DNA from: a phage
Strand: one strand, 5' to 3'
Assembly: GCA_012145005.1 (NCBI GenBank)
Contig: GCA_012145005.1_3029.2
DNA length: 34,536 bases
Below the pieces are notes generated by a model. That model was not told the DNA's origin, made no database searches, and saw nothing but the letters and a program-made list of their open reading frames with translations. Position numbers and translations under genes: made by a program. Below, piece after piece: positions 23,603 to 30,240 of the stretch (its first letter is position 1; every line of letters starts with the position of its first letter).

Positions 23603-23632
23603 ATTATACCACATCCTTGTGGTAAAGTAAAC
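23603..23632 (-). promoter_or_regulatory. early promoter for rIIA.1-position ORF and rIIA
   Basis: GTTTAC overlapping the gene 39 stop, 18-bp spacer, TGGTATAAT. Confidence 0.6.
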
Positions 23633-25449
23633 TACTGGCTCATCCATTCTTTACGAAGGTCAGCATTATCTCCCATGAGCATTTCAAAAAGCTCTTTCCA
23701 ATTCTCAGGAAGTTTAACAACATCATATACTGGATTTTGAATCATCTCACGATATTCAGATTTTTCCAAAGAGCCAAGTCCTTTAATATAACGGATGCTA
23801 TGTTTAGGTAGAGCATCTTTGGCACTCTCATATTCAGCGACTGTATAAAACCATTCTTGTTTTTTACCGACCTGAGCGATGATTACAGGAGTTTTGACAA
23901 AGCGAATTCGTCCTTGCTCAAACAGTTCTGGCCAATTACTAAAAAATCCGAGCAGAGAAGGATAAATGCTTCCTAGACCATCATGGTCAGCATCAGTCAT
24001 AATAGCAATATTATGATAATTCAAGTTTTCGGCTTTTTCACCAAGAACTAATCCAGTGATTGCGCAAATATCAAACAGTTCTTTGTTTTTAAGCATATCA
24101 GCATATGACATACCCCAACTGTTGAGAACTTTACCACGCAATGGATAACCACCGTGAAGTTCTTTATCACGAACATCAATAAGATATCCGATAGCAGAAT
24201 CACCCTCAGTCAAGAAAAGAGTCGTGTCAGCATCTTTACCACAAAGATTCGCTTTAATGTGTTTATGAACCTTAGCTTTAGAAGCCTTTTTAGCTGCTTT
24301 AGTTTCTGCTGCTTTTTCTGCCGCCAATTTACGAGCCAAGGCAGCTTCAATAATTGGCATTAAAATTGCTTCATTGTTTAAAATGGCGCGCGAAATCTTT
24401 TTAGCATCAAGCTGAATATGACTACGAATTTCACCAAATGGAGAAGTCAAACGCTCTTTAGTTTGAGAATCAAATCGCATGTTTTTCATATCACGAACAA
24501 ACATGACGATAGTCAAACATTCTTTAACACGTGCTTTAGTTACATCAATTTTGAACTTACGTTTGATTTGTGGAATAAGGTCTTCACAAATATCATCCAT
24601 AACACAGTCAATGTGATGACCACCATTCTTAGTATGAATGTTATTAACGTATGTTAATTGACGAAAACCATCCGGTGAACGACCAACCGCAATAGAACAA
24701 TTTTCTTGTTCTTGAACAATAGCATGCTCATCATATTGGCGTGCATATTTCTTAAAATTACCCTGAACCTTTTTACCATTAAAGGTAAATTGAATATCAG
24801 GATAAACTACTGCAAGTGTCTGGAGACGATCCAGTGTAATGTCAAGATAAACCTGAGACAGCTCATTAGTTTCAAATGACATAAAATCAGGAATGAAAGT
24901 AACACGAGTTCCTTTCCATTTTCCAGGAATATCTTCCCATGATTTATTTTCCATGCCATTTGAACAACGAACTACAATATTATTTTGACCATCGCCAGTT
25001 TCACCAACAAACATTACAGAAAAAATGTTAGTTAAACTAGAACCAACACCGTTCATACCACCAGTGACGCGTTCTTTATCATCACCGAAGTTACCACCTG
25101 CTTTTGGAATAGTCCAGGCAGCAACAGGACCAGGAATTTCTTCGCCGGTAGGTGTTTTAACCATCGCTTGTGGAATACCGCGACCGTTATCTTCAACTGT
25201 TACTTGATTGTTTTTGATAGTAACATTAATTTTATTCGCGAATTTAAACTTAGTACGAATACCTTCATCTACTGAGTTATCGATAATTTCATCAATAAGC
25301 TTAACAAGACCAGGTACATACTGAACACTTTCCCATTTACCAAACAGAAAGCGCTCATGCATTTCATTAGCAGAAGAGCCAATATACATGCCGCTACGCT
25401 TTTTGATATGTTCAATATCGCTCAGAATTTTAATTTCATTCTTAATCAT
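23632..25449 (-). CDS. 39: DNA topoisomerase II large subunit gp39, uninterrupted form (605 aa)
   Basis: Track start is GTG at 25452; ATG at 25449 follows GAGGA; MIKNEIKILSDIEHIKKRSGMYIGS; GyrB-like ATPase and Toprim (EGDSA) in one reading frame. Confidence 0.9.
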   Translation of the reverse strand: MIKNEIKILSDIEHIKKRSGMYIGSSANEMHERFLFGKWESVQYVPGLVKLIDEIIDNSVDEGIRTKFKFANKINVTIKNNQVTVEDNGRGIPQAMVKTPTGEEIPGPVAAWTIPKAGGNFGDDKERVTGGMNGVGSSLTNIFSVMFVGETGDGQNNIVVRCSNGMENKSWEDIPGKWKGTRVTFIPDFMSFETNELSQVYLDITLDRLQTLAVVYPDIQFTFNGKKVQGNFKKYARQYDEHAIVQEQENCSIAVGRSPDGFRQLTYVNNIHTKNGGHHIDCVMDDICEDLIPQIKRKFKIDVTKARVKECLTIVMFVRDMKNMRFDSQTKERLTSPFGEIRSHIQLDAKKISRAILNNEAILMPIIEAALARKLAAEKAAETKAAKKASKAKVHKHIKANLCGKDADTTLFLTEGDSAIGYLIDVRDKELHGGYPLRGKVLNSWGMSYADMLKNKELFDICAITGLVLGEKAENLNYHNIAIMTDADHDGLGSIYPSLLGFFSNWPELFEQGRIRFVKTPVIIAQVGKKQEWFYTVAEYESAKDALPKHSIRYIKGLGSLEKSEYREMIQNPVYDVVKLPENWKELFEMLMGDNADLRKEWMSQ

Positions 25450-25466
25450 CACTTATCCTCGTTTGG

Positions 25467-26157: not shown

Positions 26158-26334
26158 TCACCCTTTAAGTAAGTCGTAAAATCCACCATTCACATGCTTA
26201 GGAGCAGAAGGCCGACGAGTAGACAGACGATGACATTTAGGACAAACATCATTTTCTCGTTCAGAAATCTTTTTAATTTTTTCATATTCATGCCCGCAAT
26301 CTTCGGATTGGCATTTATAATCATACATTGGCAT
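26158..26334 (-). CDS. FmdB-like zinc-ribbon protein (58 aa), not in ORF track
   Basis: AAGGAA SD; MPMYDYKCQSEDCGHEYEKIKKISERENDVCPKCHRLSTRRPSAPKHVNGGFYDLLKG with two Cys pairs. Confidence 0.5.
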   Translation of the reverse strand: MPMYDYKCQSEDCGHEYEKIKKISERENDVCPKCHRLSTRRPSAPKHVNGGFYDLLKG

Positions 26335-26336
26335 AA

Positions 26337-26756
26337 TTATTCCTTAAAGTGTGCTTTCAACATCTGATACAAGGACCATGCCTGTTCATTATTTTCAATA
26401 GTAACTTTCATGATAGGAAATTCTGTGAAATCTTCTATTTGTTCTTGCTCTTCCTGCTCTTGCTCTTCAGCTGCCTGATATGGATTTTCCACTTCATCAA
26501 AGAACCCAGCTTCACTTTTTGAAAGCCAAATAAAGTCTTCATCCAAAACATCTTTATCAGGAGATAGTACTAAATTTCCAGTAGATGACAAAATTTTAAT
26601 AGGACGCCCAAGAGCGTCCACATCTAAAATTTTAAAAGGATACATACCTAAACGGCGCGCATAGATTCCGTTATTAATATGGTCTTTAATAAAATTTTCT
26701 TGAGCTTGTTTATTTTTAAATTGATACCATTTATTAACTTCAAATTTAATAGCCAT
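26337..26756 (-). CDS. hypothetical protein (139 aa) with acidic EQ-rich segment
   Basis: ATG at 26756; segment [20 protein letters not shown]. Confidence 0.6.
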
Positions 26757-26971
26757 TAATAAATTTCCTTCCAGTAAGTTGTACCGTCTTCAGTGATTTC
26801 ACGGAATACACCATAAATCGGTTGTTTATCACCAACCTTTTCATACACATAAACAGAAGTCAAGTGAGTAAACTTAACGGTATGTTCCTTTTGAACTACT
26901 ACCAAATCTGGATCGAATAATACATCTTCAAATTCGTCATTAGTGCAGTTCTGAACAGTTTTACGTTTCAT
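26756..26971 (-). CDS. hypothetical protein (71 aa)
   Basis: ATG at 26971; promoter-like repeat element upstream. Confidence 0.6.
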
Positions 26972-27064
26972 TACAATTTCCTCATTAATTGAACAGTGGA
27001 GCGATGCGTTTCAGAAGAGTGGCAGCACCTTTGGCAAATTTTCCATTTTATTCTCCAAGTTGTT

Positions 27065-27099
27065 TTCTGTATCAGTAGTTGATATTGATATAGTACCAT
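27065..27099 (-). repeat. dispersed promoter-leader repeat, copy 3
   Basis: Minus strand ATGGTACTATATCAATATCAACTACTGATACAGAA. Confidence 0.6.
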
Positions 27100-27119
27100 A
27101 ATCAACTACTAATGTATAT
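27090..27119 (-). promoter_or_regulatory. candidate early promoter for ORF 26756..26971
   Basis: TGGTACTAT extended -10 inside the dispersed repeat; -35 weak. Confidence 0.45.
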
Positions 27120-27146
27120 AGTTTATGAAAAAAAAAAAATTAAACT

Positions 27147-27644
27147 TTATGCATAGCGAGCTTTGCTATAGTGTTTAATCCAACTTTCAGGAATGACTTT
27201 GTATGTTCCTAAAAATACCGCGTTGTACAACTTAACGCCATCTTCTACCCATTGATCGGTAATGTATGCACACATAGCGCGAGTACGATGTTTTTGAACA
27301 ACCCCTTCCTCATCTTCAGTAAATTCGAATTCATAAGGAGCAACGAACTTAATAGCTTGACCGAGTTTCCACTTAAAGTCTACACCTACGTGCGAAGTAT
27401 CAATCGTTTCAATTCCTTTAGCAGGAACAGCTTTCAAAAACGCAGACTCAAGAAATTTCGCACGAACATAGCCAAACTGAGGTTTAGACTTTCCATCTTT
27501 AGGAATGATACGCACTTTTACTTCAGAATCTTCATCTTTAACACCGTGTTTAAGCTGAATGCTTACAATTTCAACCAATTTTCCTGCTGCTTTAGAGCGG
27601 GATTTATCAGATACACGAGCTAATTCACCAATATTAATAATCAT
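27147..27644 (-). CDS. hypothetical early protein (165 aa); MotB-like by size and position only
   Basis: ATG at 27644; strong early promoter upstream; C-terminal region paralogous to ORF 27721..28263. Confidence 0.6.
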   Translation of the reverse strand: MIINIGELARVSDKSRSKAAGKLVEIVSIQLKHGVKDEDSEVKVRIIPKDGKSKPQFGYVRAKFLESAFLKAVPAKGIETIDTSHVGVDFKWKLGQAIKFVAPYEFEFTEDEEGVVQKHRTRAMCAYITDQWVEDGVKLYNAVFLGTYKVIPESWIKHYSKARYA

Positions 27645-27688
27645 AGTTATCTCTCACTTGTTAAAAAGATTTTATACTCCACAGGACC

Positions 27689-27718
27689 ATTATACTCTGG
27701 TCCCAAGAGTTTGTAAAC
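27689..27718 (-). promoter_or_regulatory. early promoter for ORF 27147..27644
   Basis: GTTTAC, 18-bp spacer, perfect TATAAT. Confidence 0.65.
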
Positions 27719-27720
27719 TA

Positions 27721-28263
27721 TTAATTCAAAATAGCTACCACTGCACTACGAGGTACTACACTAAAATCACCTGCATGAACAACGTTCAGAAGTTCAACAC
27801 CATCTTCAATCCACTGGTCTGTTACCCAACCACAGACCGAAATAAATGGGGTCTTGATAGCTACAGCACGAGTTAGAAGGTCAGTAGGATCGCATTCTTG
27901 GAAGAGGATAAGCTCTGCTTCAAAGACTATAGTTTTAATTACTTCATCATTATCTAATCGTTGTGCTCGAATCACGTAAGCTTTATTCTTATCATGCCAA
28001 TTACTTTTTGAAAAACTTTTAACCACAAACTCGCCTTCACCCAAAACACTGGTCAATGCTTTATAACCCAAACTTAGTTCAGTAGTTTTAATTTCAGTTT
28101 CAACCAGTTTGTAGGTTTTGTCAATTTCGATGGTCCGAGCAGTCATAAAAGTTTCCTTAATTTCTAATGGTTTAACAAGAGTGCCGTACATGCTTGCTAT
28201 ATCCATATCAAATATTTTATCTATAGGATTTGGGGTGTATTCAGGATTATAATTAAATTTCAT
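27721..28263 (-). CDS. hypothetical protein (180 aa), paralogue of ORF 27147..27644
   Basis: ATG at 28263; shared motif C-x-[IV]TDQW[IV]EDGV-x-L-x-N-x-V. Confidence 0.6.
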   Translation of the reverse strand: MKFNYNPEYTPNPIDKIFDMDIASMYGTLVKPLEIKETFMTARTIEIDKTYKLVETEIKTTELSLGYKALTSVLGEGEFVVKSFSKSNWHDKNKAYVIRAQRLDNDEVIKTIVFEAELILFQECDPTDLLTRAVAIKTPFISVCGWVTDQWIEDGVELLNVVHAGDFSVVPRSAVVAILN

Positions 28264-28265
28264 AA

Positions 28266-28766
28266 TTATCTCATTTCAATAAAATCTACAAGTTCAGCAT
28301 GGGATTTGCGGAACATTACTTGGTGTCCGCCAATGATAACTTCATCTTCAGGAACTTCGTATACAGCAAGATAAAACCCTTTAGAAGATAATTCTTCACG
28401 TTCTTCTCGTGTGAACCATCTCATCATATCATATTCACTAGCGAAAGCAAAATGATAAAGAGCTATAAACCATCCTGGAATATGATATTCTACTCCAACA
28501 TAATCTTTCTTGAACTTAGTATTAATTACTATATTAGCGTTTTTAACTAATAGTTTATCTTCATGTGGTACAGGAATTCTTTTATTATCATCACTATGAT
28601 GCATAAAATTAGGTCTGCTATAACCTACCCGTAATAGCCACTCTTCGCTCCATGAATCTATTATACTCCTGTATGGCGTTATTTGAACACAAAGATTTCG
28701 ACGTATTGTTATAGCATCTTCATAATCAAGAATACTAAACGATGATTCAACACGATAAATTTTCAT
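28266..28766 (-). CDS. hypothetical protein (166 aa)
   Basis: Track ORF 28266..28805 reads through an early promoter; ATG at 28766 follows GAGGATAATAAA; MKIYRVESSFSILDYEDAITIRR. Confidence 0.55.
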   Translation of the reverse strand: MKIYRVESSFSILDYEDAITIRRNLCVQITPYRSIIDSWSEEWLLRVGYSRPNFMHHSDDNKRIPVPHEDKLLVKNANIVINTKFKKDYVGVEYHIPGWFIALYHFAFASEYDMMRWFTREEREELSSKGFYLAVYEVPEDEVIIGGHQVMFRKSHAELVDFIEMR

Positions 28767-28793
28767 TTTATTATCCTCAGTAGCTATGGTGTT

Positions 28794-28823
28794 ATAATAC
28801 CACAACTAACCGAGGAAGTAAAC
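28794..28823 (-). promoter_or_regulatory. early promoter for ORF 28266..28766
   Basis: GTTTAC, 18-bp spacer, TGGTATTAT. Confidence 0.6.
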
Positions 28824-28829
28824 AACTTT

Positions 28830-29513
28830 TTATCGTTTTGTTGGAAGAGAAAGAGGATCACACTCTTCCTCTGACGGAGCATCTTCAAGACCCATAGCAT
28901 ATCGCAAAGCATACTTCATCATCAGGATGTCTTTCGCACAGTCATGAATAGAATCATGTGCAACGAATCCATCTAAAGTTCCCTTTGGAAGAGGACATGT
29001 GGTCATATCACGAACAAGAAGAAGTGCTTCAATTCTGGTGCGAATATCGCGTTGATTCCAGAATTTACAAGGTTCTAACTTAAACGTATCAAGCTCATTC
29101 TCGGAAACGCCGTTAAGACGTTGAATATCACGAATGAGATCAACTAAAATTGGAAAATCAAACGACATTCCACGGCACCAGCCTTGAGATTTCCAAGGAT
29201 CGATATTATGCGCATTGATGTAATCATTAAATTTTGCAATACCATCGATAGTGCTTACATCTTCATCTGATGGTGCAATATTTTTTCGAGCTTCAGGAGA
29301 TTGATTTTTCCACCATTCGATAGTGCTTTTAGTAAAAAGACGATGTCCTTTTTGGCTTTTTAAATCAAATTTGATTTTAATGCCACGTGAAACTAATTCA
29401 TCAAATGTTTCAACTACTTCTGGATTAGGGTCAAAGGCAATGACAGCCAAATCAATAACAGCTGCCTTTTCACCGCTTCCCATTGTTTCAAAATCTATAA
29501 TAAAATCAAACAT
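28830..29513 (-). CDS. dexA: exonuclease A DexA (227 aa), DnaQ-like 3'-5' exonuclease
   Basis: MFDFIIDFETMGSGEKAAVIDLAVIAFDP (Exo I motif) and C-terminal H-x4-D; size matches T4 DexA. Confidence 0.85.
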   Translation of the reverse strand: MFDFIIDFETMGSGEKAAVIDLAVIAFDPNPEVVETFDELVSRGIKIKFDLKSQKGHRLFTKSTIEWWKNQSPEARKNIAPSDEDVSTIDGIAKFNDYINAHNIDPWKSQGWCRGMSFDFPILVDLIRDIQRLNGVSENELDTFKLEPCKFWNQRDIRTRIEALLLVRDMTTCPLPKGTLDGFVAHDSIHDCAKDILMMKYALRYAMGLEDAPSEEECDPLSLPTKR

Positions 29514-29788
29514 TAAATTTTCCTCGCTAAATCGCGAATTTGACCTACAGTATAATCTTGGATATAAACTTTATTAATGGGCTCATCAATAAATTTTGCC
29601 ATAGATTCAATATCTTTTTGTATCTCTTCAAGACTGTATACTATCTTTAAAGCTTTTTCGCGAATAGTAACATTATCAGGTCCTGGATTTTCTTGAATGA
29701 CAGCTTTAACATTTGCCATAAGAGATTTAAACTGATGCAAACTTAATTCAATCATTAATAACCGCCTTATAAAGATGGCTAATTTCAC
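29513..29788 (-). CDS. hypothetical protein (91 aa, possibly shorter from an internal ATG)
   Basis: Track ORF; overlaps next ORF by 41 nt; C-terminal half resembles ORF 29748..30008. Confidence 0.5.
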   Translation of the reverse strand: MKLAIFIRRLLMIELSLHQFKSLMANVKAVIQENPGPDNVTIREKALKIVYSLEEIQKDIESMAKFIDEPINKVYIQDYTVGQIRDLARKI

Positions 29789-30008
29789 CTAAAACATAAT
29801 CACTGATTGTAACAGTTTTCACTTCGCCGCAAAAGAATTCTAACGCAATCAAATCTCGTTCAATTTCTTCCAATTGAAGCATTAACTTGCCTGATTCAAT
29901 TTTCACGTTTTTGCGATTTTTACTATAAGCTATTTCATAAATTTCGCTCACTTTATCTTGAAGCAGATAAAACTGGTCTTTAGTTATTTCCACGAATAGC
30001 TTCCTCAA
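29748..30008 (-). CDS. hypothetical protein (86 aa)
   Basis: Track ORF between dda and dexA. Confidence 0.5.
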   Translation of the reverse strand: MRKLFVEITKDQFYLLQDKVSEIYEIAYSKNRKNVKIESGKLMLQLEEIERDLIALEFFCGEVKTVTISDYVLGEISHLYKAVIND

Positions 30009-30240
30009 ATTTAATCAGCAACTTACAGACACTTTCATCTAATGTAATTACAGTATCTGTATTACTGTGATATGATTGTTTTTCAATTCGTTTAATTGCT
30101 AGTATAGTATCACTTATAAGATTAAGCTTATAAAGGAGCTCAGCTCCTGTTACCATAACACTGAGGTTATCTTGCTTATCAGTGTGCTTCTTTATACCAT
30201 CTATTAGACGATTTAAATATTTTGAATTGATGTTAATCAT
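29980..30240 (-). CDS. hypothetical protein (86 aa)
   Basis: Track ORF immediately downstream of dda. Confidence 0.5.
   Translation of the reverse strand: MININSKYLNRLIDGIKKHTDKQDNLSVMVTGAELLYKLNLISDTILAIKRIEKQSYHSNTDTVITLDESVCKLLIKFEEAIRGNN

Follow-up and report, generated by a model that had tools for sequence, protein, structure and literature searches.

The stretch of DNA analysed here (the window; 34,536 nucleotides, contig GCA_012145005.1_3029.2 of GenBank assembly GCA_012145005.1) is a segment of a Tequatrovirus (T4-like) genome. It carries motB and, next to it, a gene at the position of T4 motB.1, and the products of these two genes share a C-terminal domain (CTD) behind different N-terminal domains. 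A 2-kb query around motB and motB.1 matches 680 phage records. The top match is Escherichia phage Ec_MI-02 (96.9% DNA identity), and many Tequatroviruses are 96-97% identical. The minus strand is used throughout and the T4 order is kept: goF, cef, motB, motB.1, motB.2, dexA, dexA.1, dexA.2, dda. An earlier reading made from the letters alone (the sequence-only reading) had placed the pair in the MotB/DexA neighbourhood, which agrees with the order cef-motB-motB.1-motB.2-dexA found here as in T4.

The motB coding sequence (27147..27644; minus strand, as are all genes, domains and regulatory sites described below) encodes 165 amino acids (aa). It matches Pfam PF17613 over its full length (expectation value, E, 3e-100; score 333 bits, cut-off 25; residues 1-165 on profile positions 1-162 of 162) and PHROG 1671 (E 4e-76), and its position is that of T4 motB. 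The second open reading frame (ORF; 27721..28263) encodes 180 aa, matches PHROG 2333 (E 1.5e-75), and sits on the same strand between motB.2 and motB, which is the T4 motB.1 location. Both ORFs are present where the sequence-only reading had put them, and the C-terminal stretches it quoted were found, with a few residues after each. The 166-aa motB.2 gene (28266..28766) lies immediately upstream; its stop codon (28266) is 2 nt before the ATG of the 180-aa ORF (28263). Because of the Pfam and PHROG matches, the T4 synteny and the DNA identity to many Tequatroviruses, the pair is identified as motB and a widespread allele of motB.1, two adjacent early genes; this identity, together with an ancient paralogy in the CTD only, is given a probability of about 85%.

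The shared C-terminal domain

A direct BLASTP comparison of MotB with the 180-aa protein finds a single notable match, with 16/32 identities and 24/32 positives (E 3e-11). The best 32-aa ungapped window has 16 identities, whereas 200 shuffles gave 8.3 on average and never more than 11. The MotB-like family PHROG 1671 also matches the 180-aa ORF, at aa 123-178 (E 1e-16). For MotB a family profile was built from 32 homologues, and for the 180-aa protein one from 24; the two align by hhalign over 37 columns with 98% probability (E 2.2e-13). The core shared in this alignment spans aa 122-158 of MotB (RAMCAYITDQWVEDGVKLYNAVFLGTYKVIPESWIKH; 27171..27281) and aa 141-177 of the 180-aa protein (27733..27843). 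The C-terminal motif reported from the letters is thus real and far beyond chance. The N-terminal halves, reported as different, have no detectable homology by BLASTP, by hhalign or in a control limited to the N-terminal parts.

The homology does not stop at the motif. The eight proteins of a bridging set, known only from metagenome assemblies, have a KOW N-terminal domain like that of MotB in front of a MotB.1-type CTD beginning DPTDLL. By hhalign, the bridging family matches the MotB family across 128 columns (E 1.6e-25) and the 180-aa family across the whole CTD (residues 124-179; 56 columns, E 9.5e-29). Since this set aligns with both families, the homologous unit is the complete CTD, ~55 aa in MotB.1 and ~75 aa in MotB, rather than a short motif. 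A beta-hairpin of variable length, ~20 aa longer in MotB and some of the bridging proteins, lies within it. Alignment beyond the short motif was therefore found, directly over 32 aa (BLASTP) or 37 columns (hhalign) and over the full CTD through the bridging set. The proposal of a duplicated module with different N-terminal domains holds; only the CTD is homologous, both in the direct hhalign comparison and through the bridging proteins.

Structure predictions are consistent with this extent. In an AlphaFold2 model made from the family alignment, MotB has a mean predicted local distance difference test score (pLDDT) of 80 and begins with a five-stranded barrel, which a disordered linker (residues 69-83) joins to the CTD, again of five strands. 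The CTD (aa 87-160; 27165..27386), delimited by this model and the bridging-family alignment, contains a long beta-hairpin that is not in the MotB.1 CTD; its strands are predicted at residues 97-112, 115-134, 137-144, 147-152 and 156-159 (pLDDT 84-96). The model of the 180-aa protein, made in the same way, has a mean pLDDT of 70, with residues 1-41 below 50, and also ends in a five-stranded CTD. This acidic domain (aa 125-180, DPTDLL...TDQWIEDGVELLNVVHAG...; 27724..27891) is delimited by hhalign to the bridging family and by its five predicted beta-strands. Over the shared core, the strands at 142-153, 156-163, 166-171 and 175-179 of the 180-aa model correspond to those at 123-134, 137-144, 147-152 and 156-159 of MotB. 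The most conserved element of the CTD is the hairpin G-[WYF]-[IV]-[TS]-D-Q-W-[IV]-E-D-G-V-x-L-[LY]-N, and the invariant residues of the core (listed as D, Q, W, E, D, G, N) are described as acidic or aromatic.

In these models the CTD is a small five-stranded beta-barrel. It was predicted earlier by HHpred to be an OB fold of the cold-shock DNA-binding class (Viruses 2021;13:84, PMC7827196). The best structural neighbours of both whole-protein models are SH3-like barrels (Tudor, KOW, chromo) and not OB folds, the matches being given for the models as wholes, with the matched residues not reported. The resemblance to domains I-II of eIF5A/EF-P and to the small beta-barrels of tandem Tudor and KOW proteins is one of fold only (5-24% identity in the structural alignments); these proteins have no sequence relationship to the MotB proteins, and the resemblance carries no functional implication. 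Sequence searches of the PDB gave nothing usable for MotB (best match Lin2157, E 0.69) and no match for the 180-aa ORF, and thus no solved structure for any relative of either protein.

The domain is narrowly distributed. A profile search with the C-terminal region against 1.84 billion cluster representatives returned just 39 proteins, about 27 of which are small and carry the CTD at the C-terminus. Of the 50,697 records in the phage collection, 781 contain the CTD, at about two copies per genome, and their names are those usual for enterobacterial T4-like phages. Long proteins also appear among the representatives (P0258, P0259 and P0262-P0269; 361-1544 aa); they match in 3-8 stretches each, at profile positions 3-32 only. 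In P0258 and P0259, the two in which the repeats were inspected, the matches lie on repeats of the type SGYATEQWVEDKGYLTEHQSL, which are reminiscent of phage fibre proteins and resemble the TDQWVEDG hairpin. These long repetitive proteins were not accepted as family members and are treated as short-motif matches, probably coincidental.

The N-terminal domain of MotB (aa 1-67; 27444..27644) is KOW/SH3-like and basic (net charge +5), with the VSxxSRSKAAG signature of the KOW-like domain. MotB has an isoelectric point (pI) of 9.2, and its entire net charge resides in the KOW half (+5, aa 1-68), the CTD being at 0. The protein resembles T4 MotB in its full-length profile match, genomic position, promoter, RegB-site leader, KOW-like N-terminal domain and CTD. 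It differs in length (165 aa as against 162 aa in T4) and in a small indel in the CTD hairpin, and otherwise not at all; the closest aligned 162-aa MotB (P0127) is 90% identical to it. By this similarity, non-specific DNA binding and copurification with H-NS and StpA, known for T4 MotB, may be expected of the MotB of this phage as well.

The KOW-like basic domain is not found in the 180-aa ORF (probability 0.1% against the MotB N-terminal domain), and the protein is acidic (pI 4.8, net charge -8; CTD net -4; shared core pI 4.1). Nor does this ORF match PF17613 over its full length; its residues 142-175 align with profile positions 120-153 only, at 34.2 bits (cut-off 25). Judged by its sequence, the 180-aa protein shares one domain with MotB and is not itself a MotB.

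The similarity of the two CTDs is old. The DNA of the shared core is 49% identical, third codon positions are saturated (11/37 identical, 30%), and of the 16 identical amino acids 8 are encoded by differing codons. Low DNA identity together with third positions at 30% argues for an old duplication held by selection at the protein level. A recent recombination or conversion event joining the two genes in this region would be favoured by their adjacency and common orientation and by the recombinogenic character of the motB.1 locus, where a cassette has been replaced relative to T4 and deletion derivatives such as the 43-aa P0260 occur. The divergence of the core DNA and the different codons behind half of its identical residues speak against it, as does the fact that the MotB-type and MotB.1-type CTDs each retain their own distinguishing residues in all aligned homologues; a conversion origin is very unlikely. 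Even less credible is a reading in which no functional module exists, the 180-aa ORF being a decaying remnant or the motif match a product of chance or convergence. In its favour, T4 can do without the region (PMC1702504) and a motB.1 deletion has no laboratory phenotype (PMC12152347); against this, the ORF is intact in 232 clusters, with 65-99% identity and invariant columns over the whole length, and in 387 phage genomes. Chance is ruled out by the E values (BLASTP, Pfam, PHROG, hhalign) and the shuffle control, and bridging sequences that connect the two CTDs continuously argue against convergence too. Ancient paralogy confined to the CTD is thus the preferred reading of the pair.

A shared CTD behind different N-terminal domains is a correct description that was already published in 2021 and is recorded in Pfam. 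Patterson-West et al. (Viruses 2021;13:84, PMC7827196) described the conserved CTD and the different N-terminal domains of MotB and MotB.1, suggested that one of the tandem genes arose from the other by duplication, and sorted the homologues into categories 1-4 with distinct N-terminal motifs. Members of the 180-aa family already stand in the homologue tables of that paper (ECML134_009, which is P0101, and UFV13 g011, which is P0046). Relative to the parts of the paper considered here, the present analysis adds KOW proteins with a MotB.1-type CTD as a bridge, the hairpin of variable length, a repositioned short motif, the charge contrast and a frameshift in the T4 reference.

The motB.1 variant and its T4 counterpart

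The 180-aa protein is a common MotB.1 variant. It has 232 homologous clusters at the 90% identity level, and a precomputed PF17613 match is attached to nearly all of 120 clusters among the matches listed. The window-type N-terminal region (aa 1-124) is found in the 387 phage records mentioned above. It comprises a tail (aa 1-41) that is predicted to be disordered from its low pLDDT, yet has many invariant columns, and an acidic middle alpha+beta domain (aa 43-124; 27892..28137), modelled as one helix (61-74) followed by three strands (78-86, 95-102 and 108-114; pLDDT 72-86).

The resemblance to T4 MotB.1 (UniProt P39415) is strongest at the C-terminus, where the last 74 aa of the 180-aa protein are 66% identical to it (E 5e-31). 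The MotB.1-type CTD (DPTDLL ... GWVTDQWIEDGVELLNVVHAG ... VVPRSAVV) is present, with hhalign E values of 1e-33 to 2.7e-31. Both proteins are acidic (pI 4.6 for T4 MotB.1) and both are encoded between motB.2 and motB. The N-terminal 124 aa of the 180-aa protein differ, with no significant sequence similarity to T4 MotB.1 unless a bridging sequence is included, and T4 MotB.1 lacks the 42-aa tail with the DxDIASMY motif. DNA similarity is lacking as well. By blastn against T4, positions 26301-27833 are 90% identical and 28278-30017 are 93.6% identical, and nothing aligns between them. Because T4 DNA fails to align between 27833 and 28278, the N-terminal 144 codons are taken as a replaced cassette, and the segment 27834..28277 represents the variable N-terminal cassette of motB.1.

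Homology between the window-type and T4-type N-terminal regions is not claimed. A profile comparison limited to these regions reaches E 6e-10 when the bridging protein P0342 is included and falls to 0.6% probability without it, so that significance is lost on its removal; the best BLASTP match for the same regions has an E of 1e-3. At the level of structure, Foldseek aligns the 180-aa model with the whole T4 MotB.1 over 120 columns at a template modelling (TM) score of 0.61. The N-terminal domain of T4 MotB.1 has been assigned an LSm-like fold together with GoF and Frd.2 (Kim et al. 2025, PMC12152347). The middle domain resembles the GoF/Frd.2/MotB.1 family in having a helix followed by bent strands and in its structural match to the T4 MotB.1 model; on these models it possibly shares the LSm/SH3-like fold of its T4 counterpart. 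A profile comparison of the 180-aa family with the GoF of this phage, a proposed LSm-like relative, gave a probability of 0.1%.

The disordered tail contains a short linear motif, DMDIASMYGTLVKPLEI (aa 19-35; 28159..28209), which was recognized by its conserved columns within a region of pLDDT below 50. Its consensus is DxD[IV]ASMYGTL[IV]KPL and its position differs between CTD-bearing proteins. In the bridging proteins it lies between the KOW domain and the CTD. In MotB.1 of the RB68/Mosigvirus type and of some Tequatroviruses it follows the N-terminal domain, and in others it is at the N-terminus. Despite the different position, it is 87.5% identical over 16 aa to residues 97-112 of RB68-type MotB.1 (E 1.6e-8). 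In these sequences the motif behaves like a repositionable mini-module. Other rearranged forms were also seen. P0260 (43 aa) fuses 16 residues from the start of MotB.2 to the final 27 of the CTD, and P0242 and P0244 (246-251 aa) are longer and have two middle domains each. Such rearrangements of the motB.1 locus, all in other phages, fit with a 29-aa peptide that was described for RB69 in 2021.

The comparison also uncovered a frameshift in the T4 reference. The reference reads TGGATTGGAAGATGG where the resequenced T4 genomes and this phage read TGGATTGAAGATGG, a difference of one extra G. The G lies in the TDQWIEDGV codons of motB.1 (gene at NC_000866.4 7291-7650), corresponding to positions 27800-27815 of the window. 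It truncates the reference MotB.1 (NC_000866/AF158101; P39415, "13.8 kDa protein") to 119 aa ending in ...WVTDQWIGRWR; in the annotation of MT984581, MotB.1 has 143 aa and a complete CTD. The insertion is limited to the two reference records. Thirteen near-identical records (99.6-99.8%), namely 11 T4 records including T4T together with RB55 and RB59, span 520 bases where the reference spans 521, and the absence of the G was checked directly in MT984581 and KJ477684. Contigs with the 143-aa form number 256, those with the 119-aa form 2. In the 2025 study (PMC12152347), the sequence of the amber-mutant plasmid was taken from NC_000866.4, and MotB.1 is given as 13.8 kDa, the size of the 119-aa form. 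The frameshift is mentioned neither in that study nor in the parts of Viruses 2021;13:84 considered here. The negative "MotB.1" results of the 2025 study may not apply to the natural 143-aa protein.

Transcription signals and neighbouring features

The 76-bp spacer upstream of motB contains a T4-type early promoter, GTTTACA-17-TATAAT (27689..27717), which matches 11 of 12 consensus positions. The spacer differs from that of T4 by one base, and the T4 motB promoter has been mapped by primer extension (PMC1702504). Downstream of it, the motB leader carries a candidate target of the RegB endoribonuclease, GGAG followed by an A-rich tract (GGAGTATAAAATC; 27668..27680), recognized by its identity to T4. 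RegB with S1 cuts T4 motB mRNA efficiently at such a sequence (PMC1702504), and from this identity the site may be expected to work likewise in this phage.

The sequence-only reading had given each gene a strong early promoter of its own. This stands for motB and fails for the 180-aa ORF, which has no intergenic promoter. A promoter-like match at 28274..28246 was considered for the latter and rejected, its -10 hexamer being within coding sequence. An early-type promoter, GTTTAC ... TGGTATTAT (28794..28822), lies upstream of motB.2, identified by its match to the consensus only, and a weaker promoter-like match falls inside the motB.2 region (28687..28660). Because the gap to motB.2 is 2 nt, there is no promoter in it, and the nearest early-type promoter is upstream of motB.2, the 180-aa ORF is probably co-transcribed with motB.2 from the 28822..28794 promoter.

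The spacer between cef and motB, just downstream of motB, contains a 20-nt inverted repeat (27071-27113; 80% complementary, 3-nt loop) and a run of 12 A, or 12 T on the coding strand (27128-27139). In Ec_MI-02, an additional 89-aa ORF is inserted in this spacer. The repeat and the A run may represent a terminator or RNA structure, or an insertion hotspot.

Features farther from the pair were also noted. DexA.1 and DexA.2, encoded in the region 29513-30008, form a tandem pair of paralogues as well (26.5% identity over 83 aa, E 8e-9). An 86-aa ORF (29980..30240) between dexA.2 and dda is absent from T4, and Ec_MI-02 has an annotated ORF at the corresponding place; it has no detectable similarity to DexA.1 or DexA.2. 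A 606-aa ORF (23632-25452) occupies the position of T4 gene 39 (516 aa) and of gene 60 after it, which suggests an unsplit large subunit of the topoisomerase without the gene 60 bypass arrangement.

Possible roles of the shared domain

T4 MotB behaves as a nucleoid-associated-like early protein that interferes with H-NS. It binds DNA tightly, whether modified or not, and with no sequence specificity; it is toxic if overproduced, copurifies with H-NS and StpA, and doubles the burst size (PMC6070864). It changes H-NS footprints, increases the expression of genes that H-NS represses, and upregulates 75 host genes, ~30% of them H-NS-regulated (PMC7827196). T4 MotB.1 has no known function and, as noted above, its deletion has no laboratory phenotype (PMC12152347).

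It is proposed, tentatively and at somewhat less than even odds, that MotB binds DNA mainly through its basic N-terminal KOW half. The shared CTD would not be a DNA-binding surface; it would serve as a common scaffold or protein-interaction module, by self-association or through a shared partner. The acidic MotB.1 proteins could then bring a different N-terminal function to the same place through the CTD, and would not be "transcriptional regulators" binding DNA as MotB does. A scaffold is considered more likely because the MotB CTD is neutral, the MotB.1 CTD is acidic, and the invariant residues of the core are acidic or aromatic. Charge is a weak argument, however, and aromatic residues could stack on nucleic acid.

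Somewhat less probable is that the shared CTD is itself a nucleic-acid-binding element in both proteins, OB or cold-shock-like as the HHpred prediction had it, and that the N-terminal domains only modulate it. The acidity of the MotB.1-type CTD, of its core and of the whole 180-aa protein speaks against such a role, as does the acidic invariant motif (D-Q-W-x-E-D-G). The structural neighbours of the two models are SH3-like rather than OB, and the "regulator" labels attached to these proteins have been propagated from the gene name. More speculative, and rather improbable as a whole, is a combinatorial kit of four modules: the KOW-like barrel, the LSm/SH3-like domain, the repositionable 15-17-aa motif (DxD[IV]ASMYGTLxKPL) and the TDQW[IV]EDGV barrel. 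The acidic barrel with the motif would then form a docking platform for MotB or for a nucleoid protein of the host such as H-NS or StpA, and the acidic MotB.1 variants would be partners or antagonists of the MotB-H-NS-DNA complex and not DNA binders.

For annotation, the 180-aa gene is best described as encoding a MotB.1-family protein that shares the MotB CTD only, and not as "MotB" or a "transcriptional regulator". The occurrence of the same CTD in proteins of opposite overall charge, together with the repositioned motif, gives experiments a concrete handle on the DNA-binding half of MotB and on the purpose of the CTD.

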